Origin: Nanobdellota archaeon
GTDB lineage: Archaea; Nanobdellota; Nanobdellia; Pacearchaeales; GW2011-AR1
Direction: 5' to 3'
NCBI GenBank assembly: GCA_043810695.1
Contig: JBDRNV010000005.1
Span: 10,590-74,589, forward strand
Length of the DNA: 64,000 nt
Shown in pieces: positions 2,542 to 61,392 of the stretch (positions are counted from its first letter, which is position 1; every line of letters starts with the position of its first letter). The translations under genes were made by a program, and so were the position numbers. Below the pieces are notes generated by a model. The model had not been told where the DNA came from. It saw only the letters and a list, made by a program, of their open reading frames with translations, and searched no databases.

Positions 2542-3585
2542 TCACCTAATCCAGCTTCCAAGATTTTTCTGTTTCTTCTGCTCTTTTATTTCCCTTAGTT
2601 TCTCAAGCTGCTTTTCAACCCTGTCATCTGAAAAATCATGCTCATTCACAAGAATTTTTTTTATTTTATTCTCGTCAATCTTTGGAAATTTTATATCTGA
2701 ATTAATAACATCTGGTTTATGAAAAAGCTTAAATATTTCTTTCCAGTCAAATCTCTCCTGTTCTGGCAGAGACATCATCTGCTCTTCAACTGATTTAAAT
2801 ATTAAAACAGGCTGTTTGTATTTTCTAACAATATCCAGTGCTCTTTTCTGTCCTATTCCTGGAAGCCCGCGCGGATTGTAGTCTGTTCCAACAAGAATAC
2901 CAAGACAAATAAGCTGGTCAAGATTTATTTCAAGTAAATTCAAAACTTTCTGAAGTTCAATAATTTCAGGTCTTATCTCAACCCACCCTGAAAATGTTTT
3001 TCTTTTTCTTGCAAGCCCAAGATTTCTTATTAGCCTAGGGGCTCCAAAAAGCAAACTATCATAATCCTGGCTTACAGTTGCATAGATTTCATTGTTTAGT
3101 TTATTAAGATGAGCTGCTTCTGCTTCTCCTTCGCTAGGAGCTTGAATAACAGCAACTCCCATTGCTTCAAGAAGTTCTTTGCTCTCACTAATCATTGTCT
3201 CGTCAAGTCTTATTAATTGTGAACCATATCTTTTCATTGCTCCAATATCTTCTTCCTGTCTTGCTTCATTATATCTGCTTTTTGCAAGTTCTCTTCCTTC
3301 TTCTCTTATTTTATTTGTACCTGCTTTTAATTCAGGAGGTTTTCCGTCAAAAACATAAATAATCTTTATGCCATCTGCCAGAAGGTTTATGTTTCTATAA
3401 AAAATGCCTGATAAATGACTAGTAACTCTTTTTTTATTATCCATTAAAGGAGTTCCATCTGGCTGTCTTATAGTAGAAAGGAACTGGTAAAGCATGTTAT
3501 AAGCATCAACACATACAATTTTCCCCTTTAAATCAGCTATCTCTATTTCTTTTCTTGGTATGATATCTTTAATATTTAGCCCCAT
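2542..3585 (-). CDS. fen: flap endonuclease FEN-1
   Basis: MGLNIKDIIP...CVDAYNMLYQFL N-domain, GIPGIG helix-hairpin-helix region, 347 aa. Confidence 0.9.
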   Translation of the reverse strand: MGLNIKDIIPRKEIEIADLKGKIVCVDAYNMLYQFLSTIRQPDGTPLMDNKKRVTSHLSGIFYRNINLLADGIKIIYVFDGKPPELKAGTNKIREEGRELAKSRYNEARQEEDIGAMKRYGSQLIRLDETMISESKELLEAMGVAVIQAPSEGEAEAAHLNKLNNEIYATVSQDYDSLLFGAPRLIRNLGLARKRKTFSGWVEIRPEIIELQKVLNLLEINLDQLICLGILVGTDYNPRGLPGIGQKRALDIVRKYKQPVLIFKSVEEQMMSLPEQERFDWKEIFKLFHKPDVINSDIKFPKIDENKIKKILVNEHDFSDDRVEKQLEKLREIKEQKKQKNLGSWIR

Positions 3586-3718: not shown

Positions 3719-6184
3719 ATGATAAAGACAGATTTTATTCCAATAGATTATAGTTATTTTGATTTTAATGGAAGGAATCATATAAAAATAACAGGCAGAA
3801 ACAACCATGGAAAAAGAGTATGTGTAATAGATTCCTGCCCTGTTTTTCTTTGGGCTATACTTAAGGAAAATCTAAAACAAAATAAGATAGAAAAACTTAT
3901 AGATAAAGTAAAAAAAATAAAACTTGATATAAAAGGCAGGCAGACAAAGGTTGAAGATGTTGAGTTGCATGAAAAAAATTTCCTTGGAAAACCAGTTAAG
4001 GCACTTAAGATTTTTGCTACAAATTACAAAGATTTGCACGATGTTGCAGACAAGCTTGGACTACCTGAAATAGAATGTAGAAGAGGTTATGATCTAGGGT
4101 TTGTAAGCCATTATATAATTGAAAAAAAGATTATCCCATTAAATTGGTATGAAATAGAGGGGGAGGTTTTACATAATAGTGCTGAATTTGGAGGAATAGA
4201 TTCAGCCCTTGATGTTGATTTGTGTATTAAACTTAATTCTGCAAAAGGAATAGGTGAAAAGGGTTTTACTCCAAAAGTATTAAGCTTTGATATTGAGACA
4301 AGTGAATTTCAGATTGGAAAAGGAGAAATATTAATGATTTCTCTAGTTTCAAATAATTTTAGAAAAGTTATAACAACAAAAAAAGTTGTTTCAAAGGATA
4401 AAGTCTTAGATTTTGTTGAATATGTAAAAAATGAAGAGGATTTATTGGAAAAATTTGCTGAATATGTTAAAAAAATTTCTCCTGATTTTCTAGTTGGTTA
4501 TTTTAGTGATGGATTTGATATGGCTTATATAAAAGCAAGAGCTGAACAACACAAAATAAAACTTCCTTTGGGTTTGGATGGAAGTCAGCCTGTATTTCAC
4601 AGAGGAGCTATTTTAACTTGTAGAATAGATGGAATTGTACATATCGATCTCCTTAAGTTTGTTGATACTGCATATTCTCAATATATGCAATCTGAAACAC
4701 TTTCACTAAATGATGTTTCTTGGGAATTTTTAGGGGATAGAAAAAAGGGATTTGAATTTAAAGCTATTTCAAAAATGTCAGATGAAGACTGGAAAAATTA
4801 TTTTATATACAATCTGCAAGATTCTGATTTAACATATCGCTTATTTTTCAAATTCTGGCCAGATATAAGGGAATTTTCAAGAGTTATGCAAGAGCCTGCA
4901 TTTGATGTTTCAAGAAACGGAATGGCAAAAAATGTAGAGTCATATATTCTGCACAATCTTGAAAAATTCAATGAGATTCCTGAAAAAAGACCAATGCATG
5001 ATGAAATAGGAGAGAGAAGAGGAAAAGAAAAATACGAGGGTGCTTTTGTTTTTCAGCCAATTCCCGGATTATATGAAGATATTGTAATCTTTGACTTTAC
5101 AAGCAGTTATGGAAGTATCATAGTAACATATAATCTTTCAAAATCAACTCTTCTTGAAAAGCCAGAAAAAAATTCATACAATATAGAAGCTTTAGAGAAA
5201 AAAGTATATTTTTCAAAAAAATCAGGATTTTTTCCAGAAATGTTAAAAGAAATAATAATGCTAAGAAAAAAATACAAACAGGAATTAAAAAACAAAGAAG
5301 ATGCAATTACAAAAGCAAGAAGTAATGCCTTTAAGCTACTGGCAAATTCAAGTTATGGTTATCAGGGATTTTTTGGAGCAAGATATTATTGCAGAGAAGC
5401 AGCTGCTGCCACTGCTGCTTTTGCAAGGCAGTCAATAAAAAATACAATAGAAAAAATAAATCAAGCAGGCTATAAAACAATATATTCAGATACAGACAGC
5501 ATTGCATTTCTTATAAATAAAAAAACAAAACAGGAAACATTAAATTTTCTGAAAAAAGTAAATGAAGAACTTCCCGGAATAATGGAGCTTGAACTTGAGG
5601 ATTTTTATAAAAGAGGAATATGGGTTACAAAAAGAACAGGAGAATTTGGAGCCAAAAAGAAATATGCTCTAATAAGTGAAAATAATAAACTGAAAATAAG
5701 AGGTTTTGAAACAGTAAGAAGAAACTGGTGCAAGCTTGCAAGAGAAACACAAAATAAAGTATTAAGGATGATTTTAAAGGACGGGAATGAAAAAAAAGCC
5801 CTATTATATGTAAAGGAAATCATTAAAAAAATTAAGGAAAGAAAAATTGAAAGAAAAGAAATTCTTATAAGGACGCAGTTAAGAAAAGCAATTTCAGAAT
5901 ATAAAGCAATCTCTCCCCATGTCATTGCAGCCAAAAAAATGGAAGAACAAAAGATACCAATAGATGAAGGAGCGCTTATAGAATATTTTATTGCAGAAAC
6001 ACGTGAAAAAAAGAAGTGTGTTCGGGAAAAAGTCAAGCTTGTTCATGAAAAAGGAGAGTATGATATAAAATATTATCTTGAGAGGCAGATTATTCCTGCT
6101 GTTGAAAATATATTGCAAGTTTTCAATGTGAATATAAATGAGATAATTCAGGGGAAAAAACAGACAAAATTAGGAGATTTTTGA
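3719..6184 (+). CDS. polB: DNA polymerase, family B
   Basis: Exo motifs (FDIETS), the YSDTDS polymerase motif C, and a KKKYA region. The 821-aa length leaves no room for an intein. Confidence 0.9.
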   Translation: MIKTDFIPIDYSYFDFNGRNHIKITGRNNHGKRVCVIDSCPVFLWAILKENLKQNKIEKLIDKVKKIKLDIKGRQTKVEDVELHEKNFLGKPVKALKIFATNYKDLHDVADKLGLPEIECRRGYDLGFVSHYIIEKKIIPLNWYEIEGEVLHNSAEFGGIDSALDVDLCIKLNSAKGIGEKGFTPKVLSFDIETSEFQIGKGEILMISLVSNNFRKVITTKKVVSKDKVLDFVEYVKNEEDLLEKFAEYVKKISPDFLVGYFSDGFDMAYIKARAEQHKIKLPLGLDGSQPVFHRGAILTCRIDGIVHIDLLKFVDTAYSQYMQSETLSLNDVSWEFLGDRKKGFEFKAISKMSDEDWKNYFIYNLQDSDLTYRLFFKFWPDIREFSRVMQEPAFDVSRNGMAKNVESYILHNLEKFNEIPEKRPMHDEIGERRGKEKYEGAFVFQPIPGLYEDIVIFDFTSSYGSIIVTYNLSKSTLLEKPEKNSYNIEALEKKVYFSKKSGFFPEMLKEIIMLRKKYKQELKNKEDAITKARSNAFKLLANSSYGYQGFFGARYYCREAAAATAAFARQSIKNTIEKINQAGYKTIYSDTDSIAFLINKKTKQETLNFLKKVNEELPGIMELELEDFYKRGIWVTKRTGEFGAKKKYALISENNKLKIRGFETVRRNWCKLARETQNKVLRMILKDGNEKKALLYVKEIIKKIKERKIERKEILIRTQLRKAISEYKAISPHVIAAKKMEEQKIPIDEGALIEYFIAETREKKKCVREKVKLVHEKGEYDIKYYLERQIIPAVENILQVFNVNINEIIQGKKQTKLGDF

Positions 6185-18207: not shown

Positions 18208-18325
18208 TGGCCCCGATGGGATTTGAACCCACGACACCTGGATATCTCCTCGTTTGTACAAGGAAATTCTGAACTTTTGATTCGAGTTAAGAGTCCAGTG
18301 CTCTACCAGACTGAGCTACGGAGCC
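18208..18325 (-). tRNA. tRNA-Lys (anticodon CUU) with ~44-nt intron at canonical 37/38 position
   Basis: The reverse complement folds as GGCTCCG / GCTC-AGTCTGGTA-GAGC / CTGGA-CTCTTAA-[intron]-TCCAG / GTGGG-TTCAAAT-CCCAT / CGGGGCC-A. The acceptor contains one G-U pair. Confidence 0.75.
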
Positions 18326-48201: not shown

Positions 48202-48308
48202 GCACCAGTGGTTTAATGGTAGAACTCAAAATTCCCATGGCTGATGCAGCTGCGGCAGACATCCAACGGAAAAAGCTCGTGATCCGGGTTCAATTCCTGG
48301 CTGGTGCA
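48202..48308 (+). tRNA. tRNA-like gene with ~35-nt insertion in the anticodon region (candidate non-canonical intron or pseudogene); candidate anticodon loop TTCCCAT (Gly-CCC)
   Basis: A perfect acceptor stem GCACCAG/CTGGTGC+A, a D-arm GTTT-AATGGTA-GAAC, and a T-arm CCGGG-TTCAATT-CCTGG are visible. I could not pair the 3' side of the anticodon stem after removing a canonical 37/38 intron. Confidence 0.45.
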
Positions 48309-49044: not shown

Positions 49045-49083
49045 TAAAAACTTATAAATAGAGTATTTCTTTCAAATTTTAAT

Positions 49084-49157
49084 GAGCCCGTAGCTCAGCC
49101 TGGTAGAGCACTGCTCTGATAAGGCAGGGGTCCACGGTTCAAATCCGTGCGGGCTCA
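49084..49157 (+). tRNA. tRNA-Ile (anticodon GAU), intronless
   Basis: GAGCCCG-TA-GCTC-AGCCTGGTA-GAGC-A-CTGCT-CTGATAA-GGCAG-GGGTC-CACGG-TTCAAAT-CCGTG-CGGGCTC-A, a canonical cloverleaf. Confidence 0.9.
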
Positions 49158-49217
49158 TTTTTTCTTAGTAGTGTGTAGTTTCATAAAGGTTAAAAGTCCT
49201 TTGCATCAAATAATATT

Positions 49218-57287: not shown

Positions 57288-57929
57288 ATGGCTGAAGAAC
57301 AATTCAAAAGAAATATAGCATATAAACTAAGAATAGGCGATATTTTAATAGGAAAGCCAGTAGTAGATGGAGAAAGATTTTCTTTTCTTGAATTAGGAGA
57401 TAAAAAAATAATAAGAGTAAATATTATAGGAAATATTGTTGACAAGTATGACACAGGACAAGAAGAAAGAAGCGACGGAAGAAAATATGTTTTTCTTACA
57501 TTAGATGACGGCTCAGGGCAGATAAGATTAAAAGCATTTGGTGATGATTTTGATAAATTTCGGAATTTTGTTCAGGGGCAGACAGTTGTTGTAATAGGAA
57601 TGCTAAGACACTGGAACAATGAAACATATCTCTCTCCTGAAATAATAAAAGAAATGGATTCAAAATATCTTCTTGTAAGAAAATTAGAAACAGAAAAAGA
57701 TAAAGTCGTAAATTCTGGAAATATTGCTAAAGAGCAGGTAATAGCAATTAAGGACAGAATTCTTGAACTAATAAAAAATTCAGAAGAAAACAGCGGAATA
57801 GAGATTGATAAAATAACTGAAAATTTCCCGACCATCTCTTCAACATTAATAAACCGGGAAGTTCAAAAGCTTCTTGAAGAAGGAATTGCTTTTGAACCTC
57901 GCCCTGGAAAAATCAGGTATTTGGGATGA
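57288..57929 (+). CDS. OB-fold nucleic-acid-binding protein with C-terminal winged helix (RPA32-like, tentative)
   Basis: A beta-rich OB-like core (IRVNIIGNIV...YVFLTLDDGSGQIRLKAF) and a C-terminal wH-like EVQKLLEEGIAFEPRPGKIRY. Lies next to mcm. Confidence 0.4.
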   Translation: MAEEQFKRNIAYKLRIGDILIGKPVVDGERFSFLELGDKKIIRVNIIGNIVDKYDTGQEERSDGRKYVFLTLDDGSGQIRLKAFGDDFDKFRNFVQGQTVVVIGMLRHWNNETYLSPEIIKEMDSKYLLVRKLETEKDKVVNSGNIAKEQVIAIKDRILELIKNSEENSGIEIDKITENFPTISSTLINREVQKLLEEGIAFEPRPGKIRYLG

Positions 57930-57931
57930 TT
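57900..57931. repeat. left copy of 32-nt direct repeat (CGCCCTGGAAAAATCAGGTATTTGGGATGATT) = 3' end of OB-fold gene
   Basis: Matches 58394-58425 with 3 mismatches. Brackets the DUF4258/DUF2283 cassette. Confidence 0.6.
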
Positions 57932-57935
57932 AAAT

Positions 57936-58169
57936 ATGAAAATAAAATATTCAAAACACTGGATTAGGAAACAAAAAGATAAGAAAAAAGATATTACAAA
58001 GGACATCATTGAATACTGCATAAAAAATTCTAATCAGTTAAAGGACAAGTATTGGACAGATGTTTTTAATGCCATTTCAAAAATACCAGTCTCTGGAAGA
58101 ATACTCAAAGTTGTATATAAAAAAGAGAACCAAAAAGTATTTATAATAACAGCATATTGGTTAGATTAA
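57936..58169 (+). CDS. DUF4258-like small protein (putative toxin component)
   Basis: 77 aa, with KIPVSGRILKVVYKKENQKVFIITAYW resembling the DUF4258 C-terminus. Lies directly upstream of a DUF2283-like gene. Confidence 0.45.
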   Translation: MKIKYSKHWIRKQKDKKKDITKDIIEYCIKNSNQLKDKYWTDVFNAISKIPVSGRILKVVYKKENQKVFIITAYWLD

Positions 58170-58170
58170 G

Positions 58171-58380
58171 ATGAAAAAGATAACTTACGACAAAGAAGCT
58201 GATGTTTTGAATATAGATTTGGAAAACAAAGAATATTGGAAAAGTGTAGAGTTACCTAATGGAATGATTGTTGATATTTCAAAGGATGGAAGTATAACTT
58301 CTATTGAAATTCTATGGGCAAGCAAATTCTTTTCTGGAGATGCCAGAAGAGTTATTGAAACAGCAGAATCTATTTCTTGA
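58171..58380 (+). CDS. DUF2283-like small protein (putative antitoxin component)
   Basis: YDKEADVLNIDLENKEYWKSVELPNGMIVDISKDGSITSIEILWAS matches the DUF2283 pattern (YDxExDxLYI...GxxxGIEIL). Confidence 0.55.
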   Translation: MKKITYDKEADVLNIDLENKEYWKSVELPNGMIVDISKDGSITSIEILWASKFFSGDARRVIETAESIS

Positions 58381-58393
58381 CAAGTATGAGTCA

Positions 58394-58425
58394 CGTCCTG
58401 GAAAAATTAGGTATTTAGGATGATT
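58394..58425. repeat. right copy of 32-nt direct repeat (CGTCCTGGAAAAATTAGGTATTTAGGATGATT)
   Basis: See the left copy. The right copy would also encode ...RPGKIRYLG-stop. Confidence 0.6.
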
Positions 58426-58435
58426 TTATCTTCTT

Positions 58436-59479
58436 TTACCTATAAATTTCTCTTACAACTTTCTTCCTTAATTCAAATGAATCAGCCCATTTTGCATAAG
58501 CATTCCAGCCCTGAAAGATTTCAAGTATCTTTTCTTTATTTAAATCCGCGTTCCTATATTTTCTGATTTCCAAAAACATATTCCTTATGTTTCTTTTTCT
58601 TAAAAGCCTGAAATAATAAAAATTTCTGAAACCGACAAAATCTATTCCTCTTGATAAAGAAATAATTTTAGACTTTTCTTTATGAAATTCAATTTTTAAA
58701 TTTTTAATTAAAAAATCCTCTATCACCCCCCCCCAGCTTAGTAGTTTTTCTCTTGACGGATTTATAAGAACAAAGTCATCAACGTATCTTATATAATATT
58801 TTGCCCGCAATTTATGTTTAACAAATTTATCAAGTTCATTTAAGTAAACATTAGCAAAAAATTGGGAGGTTAAATTTCCAAGAGGCATTCCTTTTCCCTT
58901 AGGGTTGTCTAAAACATTATTTTCCAAAATTCTTTCAATAAGCCAAATTACTTTCTCGTCTCTTATCTTCCTTCTTATTATGCTCAGCAAAATTTTATGG
59001 TCAACTTCCTGGAAATAATGTTTGATGTCTGCTTTAAAACAATATCCTTTTACTTGATTATTATTAAACCATCCTTTTGTTTTTCCATTTTTTGAAACCT
59101 TTCTCATAAAATTATAAAATCTTTTTATAGCAAACAAGTTTCCCTTTCCTTTACGATTAGCGCAAGAGTCGTAAATAAAGGTTTTATCAAATATTGGTTC
59201 AATAACTCTAACTAAAGCATGATGAACAATTCTATCCCTGAAATCAGATTTAGAAATTTTTCTGGATTTTGGGTCTCGTAGAATAAATGTTTTTAATGGA
59301 AGAGGTTCATAAGTTTGGAATTTCAGTTCATTATGTAATGCTCTTAAATTAGTTACTAATTTTTCCTCAAACTCAATAACATCATCTTTCTGTGTTTTTC
59401 CTTTTCTTGCTTTTCTCCATGCAAGAACCAGATTCTTTATTGAATAAATCTCAGGATAAAGATTTTTATGGGTTCGCAT
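58436..59479 (-). CDS. DGR-type reverse transcriptase
   Basis: RT domains 1-7, including RKISKSDFRDRIVHHAL, GMPLGNLTSQFFANVYLNELD (LGxxxSQ, as in Bordetella bRT IGNLTSQ) and RYVDDFVLI. 347 aa, the size of DGR RTs and smaller than group II maturases. Confidence 0.85.
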   Translation of the reverse strand: MRTHKNLYPEIYSIKNLVLAWRKARKGKTQKDDVIEFEEKLVTNLRALHNELKFQTYEPLPLKTFILRDPKSRKISKSDFRDRIVHHALVRVIEPIFDKTFIYDSCANRKGKGNLFAIKRFYNFMRKVSKNGKTKGWFNNNQVKGYCFKADIKHYFQEVDHKILLSIIRRKIRDEKVIWLIERILENNVLDNPKGKGMPLGNLTSQFFANVYLNELDKFVKHKLRAKYYIRYVDDFVLINPSREKLLSWGGVIEDFLIKNLKIEFHKEKSKIISLSRGIDFVGFRNFYYFRLLRKRNIRNMFLEIRKYRNADLNKEKILEIFQGWNAYAKWADSFELRKKVVREIYR

Positions 59480-59511
59480 ATTAGCATGAAAAACCTAGCC
59501 ATTAGTTGAGC

Positions 59512-59596
59512 CATTCTACCATTATCGTTGGAATTCGCCAAGTTATCATTGTTGGAGTTCAAATTCAAGTTCCTGTTCAAGTACAACCTGGAAAGT
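59512..59596 (-). repeat. DGR template repeat (TR), sense on minus strand
   Basis: 85 nt. Compared with VR1 and VR2, all 17+17 mismatches fall on plus-strand T (an A in the minus-strand template). Lies between the target gene and the RT. Confidence 0.75.
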
Positions 59597-59818
59597 TTTT
59601 CTAGCCCATTAATTAAAAGTAAATCACCACCTTTTCAATTTTCAGTAAACTTACTAGTTGTTAAAGTTGAATTTTATGACTTCCATATTAATGGAAGTGC
59701 TATTAATGGGCGTGTGGCCCAACCATGATACTTGATTAACAAGTACTGGCTAGGAATTTTATAAAGAAGAATTGTTTTATAAATTTAATTTCCTTTAAAT
59801 TGACTACGCTTGGACAAT

Positions 59819-60676
59819 TTATTTTCCACTAAGAACTTTTTCTGCTTTTTTGTATCTTCTATCAACTTCTGATATTTGTTTATCTCTTATTTCTTGAAGA
59901 TTTTTTAAATAATCATCCAAAATTTTCTGCGAAGTGGCTTCGCCACTTACAACAACCACCCTACCACCATCGCCGGAATCCGCCAAGCCACCATCGTTGG
60001 AGATCAAACTCAAGCCCCTGCCCAAGTACAACCTGGAAAGTCCTGAATCTCTTGTATAAAGAGTTCTGTTTCCATCTCCTAATTTTTCAGGCAAACCATA
60101 TTTTCCTGTTTCTGAAAATGATTTTTGATTATTTTTTCCATTAAGAATAGGTGCATAAATTAATTCTGCTTCATCTGTTAACTTAAATACCAATCCCTTA
60201 GGCGAATTTGAATCATTGACTATTTCAAGCTCATTTAATGAAATAAGTATTGGTGTTTCTCCTGCTTTTTTTCCTCTTGCTTTTACCTGTTCTGCTAAAT
60301 TTTTAGCGAGATATTCATTTGGATTTCCCTCTGTTCTTAAAACTAATCCAGTATCTTCATATGTTCCTCTTAAATTAAAGGCATTTGTTTTTAAAACTCT
60401 TTCAAGGTCAGCTTGGTTTGCTGTTCTTAATCCTTCTTGTTTAAGAATCTGGTTAGCAAGAACAACTACAAAGGGGTTGCTTTCTTTTACAATACCATCT
60501 GTATATGAAAGAACATTAAGGGCATTTGCGTTTTTGTAATCAATTTTAACTTTTCCTTGGTATTCTGCTAAGAAAGCTTTTCCAAAATCTCCTTCTAAAA
60601 ATCCTGCTTGAGGTGTGTTTTCTGGAATTGCAATTAATGGTTTTCCTTTGAATGCTGGAAGTCTTGTCTTTTCCAT
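59819..60676 (-). CDS. DGR variable (target) protein 1
   Basis: 285 aa. C-terminal region ...NRTLYTRDSGLSRLYLGRGLSLISNDGGLADSGDGGRVVVVSGEATSQK is encoded by VR1, followed by a 34-aa tail. Paralog of target 2. Confidence 0.65.
   Translation of the reverse strand: MEKTRLPAFKGKPLIAIPENTPQAGFLEGDFGKAFLAEYQGKVKIDYKNANALNVLSYTDGIVKESNPFVVVLANQILKQEGLRTANQADLERVLKTNAFNLRGTYEDTGLVLRTEGNPNEYLAKNLAEQVKARGKKAGETPILISLNELEIVNDSNSPKGLVFKLTDEAELIYAPILNGKNNQKSFSETGKYGLPEKLGDGNRTLYTRDSGLSRLYLGRGLSLISNDGGLADSGDGGRVVVVSGEATSQKILDDYLKNLQEIRDKQISEVDRRYKKAEKVLSGK
59957..60041 (-). repeat. DGR variable repeat VR1
   Basis: 68/85 identical to the TR. The 17 differences all fall at TR adenines. Followed on the 3' side (coding sense) by a hairpin at 59932-59948. 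Confidence 0.75.
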
Positions 60677-60678
60677 TT

Positions 60679-61392
60679 TTATTGTTTTCTTTTTACTATT
60701 TTTTGTGAAGTGGCTTCGCCACCAACAACAACCACCCTACCATAATCGATGGAATACGCCAAGCTACCACCGTCGGAGTACAAATCCAAGCCCCTGCCCA
60801 AGTACAACCCGGAAAGTCCTGAATCTCTTGTATAAAGAGTTCTATTTCCTTTTTTATCAAATATAGGCATTCCACGTTCATCTTGTCTTACAAATTTTTG
60901 TTGATTATTTTTATTATTCAATTCAGGAGCTTCAAAATAATCAAAGGTTTTTCCTCTCTTAAAATTTAAACCATAAAAAGAATTACCATCCTCAACTAAT
61001 TCTAAGCCATTCATAACAACAGGTTCATTAAATTTTCTTTTTTTAATAAGTTTAGCCAATGTTTCTGCTAAATAATCATTTCTTTCATAAGTATCTTCGT
61101 TACTTCTTAATACAAGAGAAGGAACATCTTCATATGTTCCATTTAAAAAATTATTATCTAATTGGATTATTTGGTCTAATTCTGGTAAAGTAGCTGTCCT
61201 TATTCCTACCTGATTAAGCAAAAGAACCTTAAAAAGATTAGAACCTTTTATAGAAATATCTAATGAATTTTTTGCCCTTTCATTATTAAACTTTTTAATA
61301 GCATCTTCATATATTTTCTGCTCATTTTCTGATAAAAATCCTGCTATTAAGTAAGGCACATTCTTGGGTATAAATCTTATTGTCTTTTCCAT
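60679..61392 (-). CDS. DGR variable (target) protein 2
   Basis: 237 aa. The C-terminus ...LYLGRGLDLYSDGGSLAYSIDYGRVVVVGGEATSQKIVKRKQ is encoded by VR2. No signal peptide seen. Confidence 0.65.
   Translation of the reverse strand: MEKTIRFIPKNVPYLIAGFLSENEQKIYEDAIKKFNNERAKNSLDISIKGSNLFKVLLLNQVGIRTATLPELDQIIQLDNNFLNGTYEDVPSLVLRSNEDTYERNDYLAETLAKLIKKRKFNEPVVMNGLELVEDGNSFYGLNFKRGKTFDYFEAPELNNKNNQQKFVRQDERGMPIFDKKGNRTLYTRDSGLSGLYLGRGLDLYSDGGSLAYSIDYGRVVVVGGEATSQKIVKRKQ
60733..60817 (-). repeat. DGR variable repeat VR2
   Basis: 68/85 identical to the TR. The 17 differences all fall at TR adenines, at a partly different set of positions from VR1. Hairpin at 60707-60723. Confidence 0.75.

Follow-up and report, generated by a model that had tools for sequence, protein, structure and literature searches.

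A probable chromosomal, Avd-less diversity-generating retroelement in a Pacearchaeales archaeon, and a candidate scaffold role for its RT-16 RNA

Introduction

In the textbook diversity-generating retroelement (DGR), that of the Bordetella phage BPP-1, genes and RNA elements follow the order mtd-avd-TR-Sp-brt, with a template repeat (TR), a spacer (Sp) and the gene for the reverse transcriptase (RT; bRT in Bordetella). Archaeal cellular DGRs were first described in the DUSEL4 genomes, one of which is Nanoarchaeota SCGC AAA011-G17 (Paul et al., 2015; PMC4372165), and the Pacearchaeota and Woesearchaeota DGRs of later surveys are grouped with those of Nanoarchaeota as the systems closest to the one discussed here. 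The present analysis concerns an element within a 64,000-nucleotide stretch of DNA, hereafter the window, from an archaeon of the Pacearchaeales (assembly GCA_043810695.1, contig JBDRNV010000005.1, positions 10,590 to 74,589). With a probability of roughly 85%, we read this element as a chromosomal DGR that has no Avd and belongs to the Nanoarchaeota/Pacearchaeota clade, and whose mechanism we infer by comparison with Bordetella.

The Bordetella ribonucleoprotein (RNP), as resolved by cryo-electron microscopy, provides the structural reference for such a comparison. Specifically, TR118-129 pairs with Sp47-56, and Sp A56 primes synthesis at TR G117; 2 nt further on, Sp59-70 pairs with a segment of avd lying just 5' of the TR, a duplex designated the 'cPRT Stop'; and next come a short hairpin, adenosines, the 'Thumb Ring', which is single-stranded, and a long stem bound by the RT, the TR itself being looped out (bioRxiv 10.1101/2023.10.23.563531). 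DGRs built on a TR-RT core without avd, termed Architecture A, account for 29% of 372 DGRs, and an Avd-independent mechanism has been suggested for them; unlike the analysis presented here, that survey includes no description of RNA structure (Wu et al., 2018; PMC5758913).

RT-associated RNA motifs form a further part of this background. RT-16 is one of 19 such motifs, of which only RT-10, located between the TR and brt of BPP-1, has been tied to a DGR (PMC5737381), and a literature search for a role of RT-16 (RF03019), or for a link between it and DGRs, returned catalogue mentions only. The locus described below carries an RT-16 RNA directly beside its TR. Its value is that of a clean and compact example rather than a discovery in itself; comparing it with the Bordetella RNP nevertheless gives a testable model of where complementary DNA (cDNA) synthesis starts and stops in Avd-less DGRs, and suggests a likely role for an Rfam motif without an assigned function.

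Organization of the element and its reverse transcriptase

The element spans approximately 3 kb and is arranged on the minus strand in the order target 2, target 1, RT-16 RNA, TR and RT, with two targets and no accessory gene. The genes around it encode MCM, an OB-fold protein, aIF2-beta and aIF1A, and the DGR therefore sits in a chromosome. Every DGR hallmark that can be tested at the sequence level is present, and the DGR interpretation put forward in an initial annotation of this DNA is borne out by the grouping of the RT, the adenine-only repeat differences, the AAY codons (Y, pyrimidine), the predicted lectin fold of the targets and the hairpins found after the variable repeats alone.

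The RT gene (58436-59479, minus strand; identified as an open reading frame, ORF, with its translation) encodes 347 aa and contains the sequence GMPLGNLTSQ, of which LGNLTSQ constitutes residues 200-206 within motif 4, as well as RYVDDF. The initial annotation had reported the length and both motifs, and both can be seen in the translation. The motif 4 sequence conforms to the [I/L/V]GxxxSQ pattern of DGR RTs and aligns with IGSLTSQ of bRT, which had been quoted in error as IGNLTSQ. The protein matches Pfam RVT_1 (E 8.6e-18), and its matches in NCBIfam are all sub-threshold. Its best solved relative is Bordetella bRT (8ub7; E 1.1e-42, 149 bits), with which it is homologous over its full length (residues 3-337, the C-terminal WxxxAxWAD included), whereas no group II or retron RT exceeds 69 bits. 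Similarly, a search of phage genomes returned the DGR RT of the archaeal virus ANMV-1 as the best match (39%), followed by those of known DGR phages. Judged by these scores, the RT groups with DGR RTs rather than with group II intron or retron enzymes, as had been proposed.

Template and variable repeats

The TR (59511-59596) and two variable repeats (VRs), VR1 (59956-60041) and VR2 (60732-60817), all read on the minus strand, form a single ungapped repeat family of three 86-nt copies, identified with a repeat finder and a script, in which VR1 and VR2 each share 80% identity with the TR. The TR, a non-coding sequence, adjoins the RT gene and ends 31 nt before the RT ATG. VR1 differs from the TR at 17 positions (16 A>G and one A>T), as does VR2 (13 A>G and four A>T), and all of these mismatches fall within the 29 adenines of the TR, none of the 57 non-adenine positions differing in either VR (hypergeometric P = 1.3e-10 per VR for 17 mismatches all on adenines). 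Twelve of the changed adenines are common to both VRs and five are private to each. Computational re-alignment thus agrees with the initial annotation that each VR has 17 mismatches, that every one lies on a template adenine and that the two VRs are changed at partly different adenines. The repeat coordinates given there were right to within one base, but the repeat measures 86 rather than 85 nt, owing to an extra matching 3' base, and includes 57 rather than 56 non-adenines. When each TR adenine is replaced by N, the resulting pattern matches these three sites only in the entire window, where no match is expected by chance.

The TR is also composed as a template for coding sequence. Read in the frame of the targets it contains 10 AAY codons, 27 of its 29 adenines stand at codon positions 1-2, and AGA is the sole codon able to mutate to a stop. 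Each VR spans 28 codons toward the C-terminus of its target, VR1 corresponding to codons 213-240 of target 1 and VR2 to the matching place in its paralog.

The last two mismatches of each VR, where the TR reads AGAAUG and the VR AGGGUG, require separate consideration. In related loci, 56 of 60 VRs have GGGU at the 3' end where the TR has GAAU, and the residues encoded by the affected codons, R239 and V240, are invariant in 120 homologs even though the TR has adenines there. Because of this clade-wide split and this invariance, the two terminal A>G mismatches are a fixed TR/VR discriminator rather than as products of mutagenesis, and approximately 15 of 27 adenines are therefore left to carry the mutagenesis signature. 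The earlier figure of 17 of 29 is accordingly an overcount, although the adenine-only character of the signature stands. The TR ends in the clade-wide sequence GAAUGG (59516-59511), and its counterpart at the 3' end of VR1, GGGUGG (59956-59961), resembles an IMH (initiation of mutagenic homing) site. Additionally, a GC hairpin with a GAA loop follows both VRs and is absent 3' of the TR: after VR1, within the coding region, it occupies 59932-59948 (AAGTGGC-GAA-GCCACTT, 7 bp; DNA fold -6.3 kcal/mol, z -3.1), and after VR2 it occupies 60709-60723 (GGTGGC-GAA-GCCACT, 6 bp; DNA fold), both on the minus strand. A GC-rich hairpin, usually with a GAA triloop, lies about 11 nt after the VR 3' end across most VRs of the clade. 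The locus thus displays both the end difference between IMH and IMH* and the VR-only downstream hairpin expected of a DGR.

Both VRs equal the TR at 57 of 57 non-adenine positions, in spite of flanks that have diverged (five differences over 66 shared nt) and of encoded proteins that are only 49% identical. This supports the earlier proposal that one TR serves both targets and, because the identity persists despite the divergence of the paralogs, argues that both VRs have been overwritten from this TR since the genes diverged. A reading in which the RT is that of a retron or group II intron and the repeats are remnants of gene duplication could appeal to a sub-threshold NCBIfam match to a group II maturase (140 bits against a cutoff of 300). 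It would have to contend with bRT as by far the best solved relative, with 34 of 34 mismatches on adenines, with a TR that is non-coding and stands beside the RT, and with an Rfam search that found no intron RNA domains and no retron msr/msd. The adenine-only mismatches and the identity of the best relative refute it, and we give it practically no credence.

Target proteins

Target 1 (59819-60676, minus strand) is a protein of 285 aa with a predicted C-type-lectin fold and a C-terminal helix (residues 250-282), and target 2 (60679-61392, minus strand), its paralog, is a protein of 237 aa without that helix. Neither matches any Pfam or NCBIfam family at E <= 0.1 or any PDB sequence, and neither has a hidden Markov model match to the Pfam families FGE-sulfatase or DUF1566. 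More than 300 target homologs were found, all of them in assemblies of Nanoarchaeota, Pacearchaeota or Woesearchaeota. A first AlphaFold model built from 36 sequences reached a predicted local distance difference test score (pLDDT) of 72, and one built from 120 sequences reached a pLDDT of 91.4 with a predicted template modelling score (pTM) of 0.80. The latter model best matches TaqVP and AvpA, two DGR variable proteins of the C-type-lectin type, and so predicts a C-type-lectin fold in which the VR forms the C-terminal part of the domain, a fold that is customary among DGR targets. Of the fold check proposed in the initial annotation, then, the C-type-lectin prediction holds and the FGE-sulfatase match does not. 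Sequence identity between these targets and TaqVP (5vf4), AvpA (5ioo) and TvpA (2y3c) is only 11-14%, and the long C-terminal helix of target 1 is an addition relative to all three.

Variation among the homologs follows the template. In the alignment of 120 homologs, columns whose TR codon has A as its first or second base have a mean entropy of 2.3 bits and the other VR columns 0.5 bits, and the high-entropy columns are dominated by D, G, N, Y and S. This pattern suggests that the whole target family is diversified in the manner of a DGR.

Related loci and the absence of Avd

Relatives of the element were collected by scanning GTDB representative genomes with an RT alignment; 588 were found, among them Nanoarchaeota SCGC AAA011-G17, and the sequences of 80 loci were retrieved. 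Identity of the RT to its SCGC AAA011-G17 counterpart is 66%, and to the AAA011-D5 enzyme it reaches 82% in the best segment. In nearly all 80 loci the distance from the end of the TR, itself 75-100 nt long, to the RT start is 25-35 nt, and related loci carry one to five upstream VRs with adenine-only mismatches, two or more being common. The DUSEL4 Nanoarchaeota DGRs have the same VR GGGU and TR GAAU ends (TGGGGT/TGGAAT in the original description), the same GRA-triloop hairpin (R, purine) inside the target gene, and orphan targets (PMC4372165). On the strength of its related RT, its GGGU/GAAU ends and the GRA-triloop hairpin in its targets, the element belongs to the Nanoarchaeota/Pacearchaeota clade described by Paul et al. 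(2015; PMC4372165), of which it is an ordinary representative. That clade is already large and published, and the locus adds one more member to it.

Several individual loci deserve mention. One TR is accompanied by five VRs in L041 (389-5618) and by three in L032, and multiple VRs also occur in L020, L028, L034, L043, L048, L053, L054, L065, L068, L070, L072 and L080. L047 (DAIQOR010000001.1) is labelled 'bacterium' and yet holds an archaeal-type DGR, with an RT 60% identical to that of the window, a CUACA linker and a GAAUAG end. In L051, a perfect 55-nt duplicate of part of the TR (5734-5788 and 5889-5943) lies beside a run of N and is possibly an assembly artefact.

No Avd was found in the cassette, in the neighbouring genes or across 81 loci. 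Specifically, no coding-strand ORF of at least 50 aa lies between target 1 and the RT, no neighbouring gene has an Avd-like Pfam match, and clustering of the ORFs of the 81 loci recovered nothing conserved other than the RT, in 81 loci, and five families of targets, in 28, 15, 11, 6 and 5 loci. Avd is present in approximately 74% of DGRs and hence is not strictly defining. The avd-less TR-RT core seen here is the same as that of Architecture A DGRs (PMC5758913). In SCGC AAA011-G17 (L025), the lone ORF between target and RT is a 75-aa frame (5831-6058, plus strand) that runs through the TR, the interval being otherwise filled by RT-16 (5723-5885); the 2015 paper depicts small 'Avd-like' ORFs, which may be frames of this sort.

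The RT-16 RNA and its pairing with the template repeat

The Rfam covariance model for RT-16 (RF03019) matches 59596-59754 on the minus strand, directly 5' of the TR, with 106.9 bits against a gathering score of 50 and over its full length (model positions 1-158). RT-16 was detected in 17 of 20 related loci, lying upstream of the RT on the same strand in 16 of these, and in the 13 loci with a mapped TR the end of the model is at a distance of 0-6 nt from where the TR begins. In L076 the copy (2777-2890, minus strand) sits on the strand opposite to the RT and downstream of it, with none detected upstream. With only 31 nt from the end of the TR to the RT ATG in the window, there is no room on the 3' side for a Bordetella-like spacer.

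Read 5' to 3' along the minus strand, the RNA comprises the 5' strand of a helix here called A (59747-59754), an apical hairpin (59728-59746), the 5' strand of helix B (59715-59725), an invariant linker CCACAC (59712-59717), the P2 stem (59702-59711 with 59604-59613), a short hairpin (59680-59697), a conserved unpaired stretch AUAAAAUUCA (59668-59677) and a long stem that carries an AGUA/GAAA loop. For comparative analysis, 63 loci were anchored on the linker C-Y-A-C-A and on the TR end G-A-A-U-R-G; the linker and GAAU are invariant in all of them.

Helix B is formed by 7-10 nt that end in C-Y-A and are complementary to U-R-G and the bases that follow it. Its 3' strand in the window, identified by covariation and folding, is UGGCUCAACUA (59503-59513, minus strand), which comprises the last 3 TR nt and the following flank and is IMH*-like. 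Across the 63 loci, 89.8% of cells are paired, as compared with 71.6% in shuffled controls and 20-49% with the partner displaced by 1-3 columns, and both sides have changed in 168 cells where 50 are expected, a number that none of 500 shuffles matched. At the Y:R pair, 30 loci have C-G and the other 33 have U-A without a single exception, and a rough neighbour-joining tree of the RTs requires at least 15 switches. Together, these data support pairing of RT-16 with the 3' flank of the TR, and we propose that the 3' strand of helix B is the template side of a template:primer duplex.

The remaining long-range contacts are supported in similar ways. Helix A joins the initial 8-10 nt of RT-16 to a complementary segment located 8-11 nt after U-R-G. 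Its 3' strand in the window, which appears in the unconstrained minimum free energy fold, is UGGCUAGG (59494-59501, minus strand), 14 nt 5' of the RT start codon; in 56 loci the mean duplex energy of the helix is -14.8 kcal/mol for cognate and -9.5 kcal/mol for non-cognate strands, and none of 300 permutations was as low. P2 shows 10 pairs with compensatory changes and ends 7-8 nt before the TR. When 59476-59758 is folded without constraints, helices A and B, the apical hairpin and P2 appear together, at -74.4 kcal/mol against -55.3 kcal/mol for shuffled sequences (z -4.1). Two other candidate pairings were rejected. One would join the TR 3' end (GAAUGGC) to the 5' strand of P2 (GCCCAUU), which instead covaries with the RT-16 3' strand while GAAUGG is constant; the other, a local hairpin in the post-TR spacer (b:b'), has no cognate-specific signal, 172 of 1000 permutations being as low.

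A weak Rfam match to RT-11 (59625-59748, minus strand; E 0.003, far under the gathering score) overlaps RT-16. RT-11 and RT-16 share CUACACGC, AUAAAA and GAAG...GUG elements, and the two Rfam families are probably related.

A TATA-like box, TTTATAAA (59776-59783, minus strand), stands 30 nt before the first RT-16 base and, by its position, is a candidate promoter of the DGR RNA. The same box likewise precedes by 30 nt the ATG of the apparently leaderless aIF2-beta and aIF1A genes. At the gene starts 54926, 62066, 63078 and others, TTTATAAA or a similar box lies approximately 30 nt before the ATG with no Shine-Dalgarno-like motif, which suggests that mRNAs in this organism are mostly leaderless.

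Comparison with Bordetella and a model for cDNA synthesis

The element and the BPP-1 DGR have several features in common, including adenine-specific TR/VR differences, AAY codons, a C-type-lectin target (here predicted) and a hairpin after the VR and, at the level of RNA, a primer-like strand ending in A and a duplex just 5' of the TR. They differ in that the archaeal locus has no Avd and its RNA no Avd-binding stem-loop, in that the ends of the RNA are closed by the additional helix A, and in that two targets are served, on an archaeal chromosome instead of in a phage. The missing Avd-binding stem-loop is consistent with the absence of Avd.

A further difference concerns the placement of the helper RNA, which lies 5' of the TR here and on the opposite side in BPP-1. 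After C-Y-A, RT-16 resembles the Bordetella RNA in passing from a linker of 2-3 nt through a P2 strand, a short hairpin and the A-rich single strand AUAAAAUUCA to the AGUA/GAAA-loop stem; unlike the Bordetella RNA, RT-16 then comes back to the other strand of P2 and runs into the TR. The Rfam Phage_DGR model, placed on BPP-1, shows the element order of the cryo-electron microscopy structure. This model (RT-10; RF03022) has no match at E <= 1 in 59300-59900 and resembles RT-16 in element order only. The archaeal RNA therefore looks like a circular permutation of the Bordetella DGR RNA, in which the primer strand, the stop duplex and the RT-binding stem would come before the TR rather than after it.

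These comparisons can be combined into a model. One transcript would start near 59754, 30 nt past the TATA-like box, would comprise RT-16, the TR and the 31-nt spacer, and would probably run on into the RT ORF. The folded RNA would loop the TR out between two duplexes, helix B joining the 3' flank of the TR to the strand that ends in the C-Y-A-C-A linker and P2 standing immediately 5' of the TR. The RT, if it behaves as in the Bordetella RNP, would bind the RT-16 core, and cDNA synthesis would be primed in cis from a linker adenosine, at or within 3 nt of the junction between GAA and U (59516-59514). Every end difference between TR and VR in BPP-1 is located 3' of the start site G117, and the cDNA might by the same token start here at or just 5' of the fixed AA. 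The RT would then copy the TR, misincorporating at adenines, and stop at P2, and the cDNA, directed by the GGGU end and hairpin, would replace VR1 or VR2, such that approximately 17 codons of the ligand-binding face of each protein would be diversified. As a general proposition, RT-16 would be the scaffold of Avd-less archaeal DGRs, permuted and with its two ends clamped by an extra helix, the RT and an RNA of approximately 275 nt being self-sufficient and priming in cis from C-Y-A-C-A; we consider the odds on this proposition to be even. If RT and RNA do suffice, they would offer a smaller base for engineered targeted mutagenesis than the three-component Bordetella system.

Several observations weigh against the reading of the locus as a DGR that works in this way. 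A Foldseek search of PDB with the first, weaker target model returned nothing significant. A 4-kb contig of another assembly is 99.9% identical to the locus, and its four single-nucleotide polymorphisms all fall outside TR and VRs. In the Rfam model, the local P1 hairpin draws on the nucleotides of helices A and B, and it is likewise cognate-specific. The VR carries the same purine as the TR just 3' of the AA/GG difference, for which the simple model gives no account. Finally, the priming step, the stop at P2 and the independence of Avd are drawn by analogy.

As the VRs are identical in the second assembly, no recent turnover is visible at the consensus level, and the element could be a DGR by anatomy that is now inactive, the VR differences being relics of past homing. 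That the VRs have remained the same in two assemblies that differ by four polymorphisms elsewhere is what such a history would predict. Retention of function is suggested, on the other hand, by an intact RT ORF with its catalytic motifs, by a TR whose only possible stop codon (AGA) apparently lies outside the copied tract, by a GGGU end and hairpin kept at both VRs, by intact RNA helices, and by non-adenine VR positions that still equal the TR where the flanks differ at 5 of 66. We consider inactivity improbable.

The competition between P1 and helices A and B for the same nucleotides, both pairings being cognate-specific, makes two alternative folds possible and bears on a further alternative, namely that RT-16 and helices A and B act mainly as a two-state leader governing translation or stability of the RT mRNA rather than as a scaffold. 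Such a switch would account for two cognate-specific pairings of one 5' strand, and helix A does cover a segment rich in purines, AGG(A/U), that lies 10-15 nt ahead of the RT ATG. The 3' strand of helix A is, however, weakly supported as a Shine-Dalgarno sequence, since most genes in the window look leaderless and have no such motif; moreover, the TR lies inside the fold, and the RT-16 core has the element order of the RT-binding part of the Bordetella RNA. A mainly regulatory leader thus seems to us a poor prospect, about on a par with inactivity, and leader and scaffold roles are in any case not exclusive.

The purine shared by TR and VR is part of a wider pattern: across the 63 loci the linker Y (59716), the TR R (59512) and the VR R (59957 and 60733) always agree, and the fixed AA/GG difference separates this covarying purine from the diversified tract. 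Target-primed models have been proposed for DGRs, and in such a model the cDNA would be primed by nicked target DNA, helix B serving instead to hold or regulate the TR 3' end. The VR keeps U-R as in the TR beside the fixed AA/GG difference, and the pairing that the linker makes with the TR U-R would be reproduced exactly by a bottom-strand 3' end ...Y-A. Priming in cis is favored by the invariance of the C-Y-A-C-A linker and GAAU in 63 loci, and by the position of helix B beside a second duplex, as in the cis-priming Bordetella RNP. Target priming is accordingly unlikely in our judgement, though it deserves somewhat more weight than either inactivity or a leader function.

Genomic neighborhood

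Adjacent to the cassette are a small membrane protein and a DUF4258/DUF2283 pair (Pfam). Elsewhere in the window, Rfam returned two tRNA matches, at 18208-18325 (minus strand) and 48202-48308 (plus strand), which at 107-118 nt are long enough to contain introns; ARAGORN reported only a tRNA-Ile at 49083-49158 and missed both of the long Rfam matches. The DUF4258/DUF2283 pair (57936-58380), which is toxin-antitoxin-like, is bracketed by an imperfect direct repeat of 39 nt (85%; 57893-57931 and 58387-58425). The first copy of this repeat is the 3' end of the OB-fold gene (57288-57929), and the pair resembles a cassette that was inserted where that gene ends, the gene end being duplicated.

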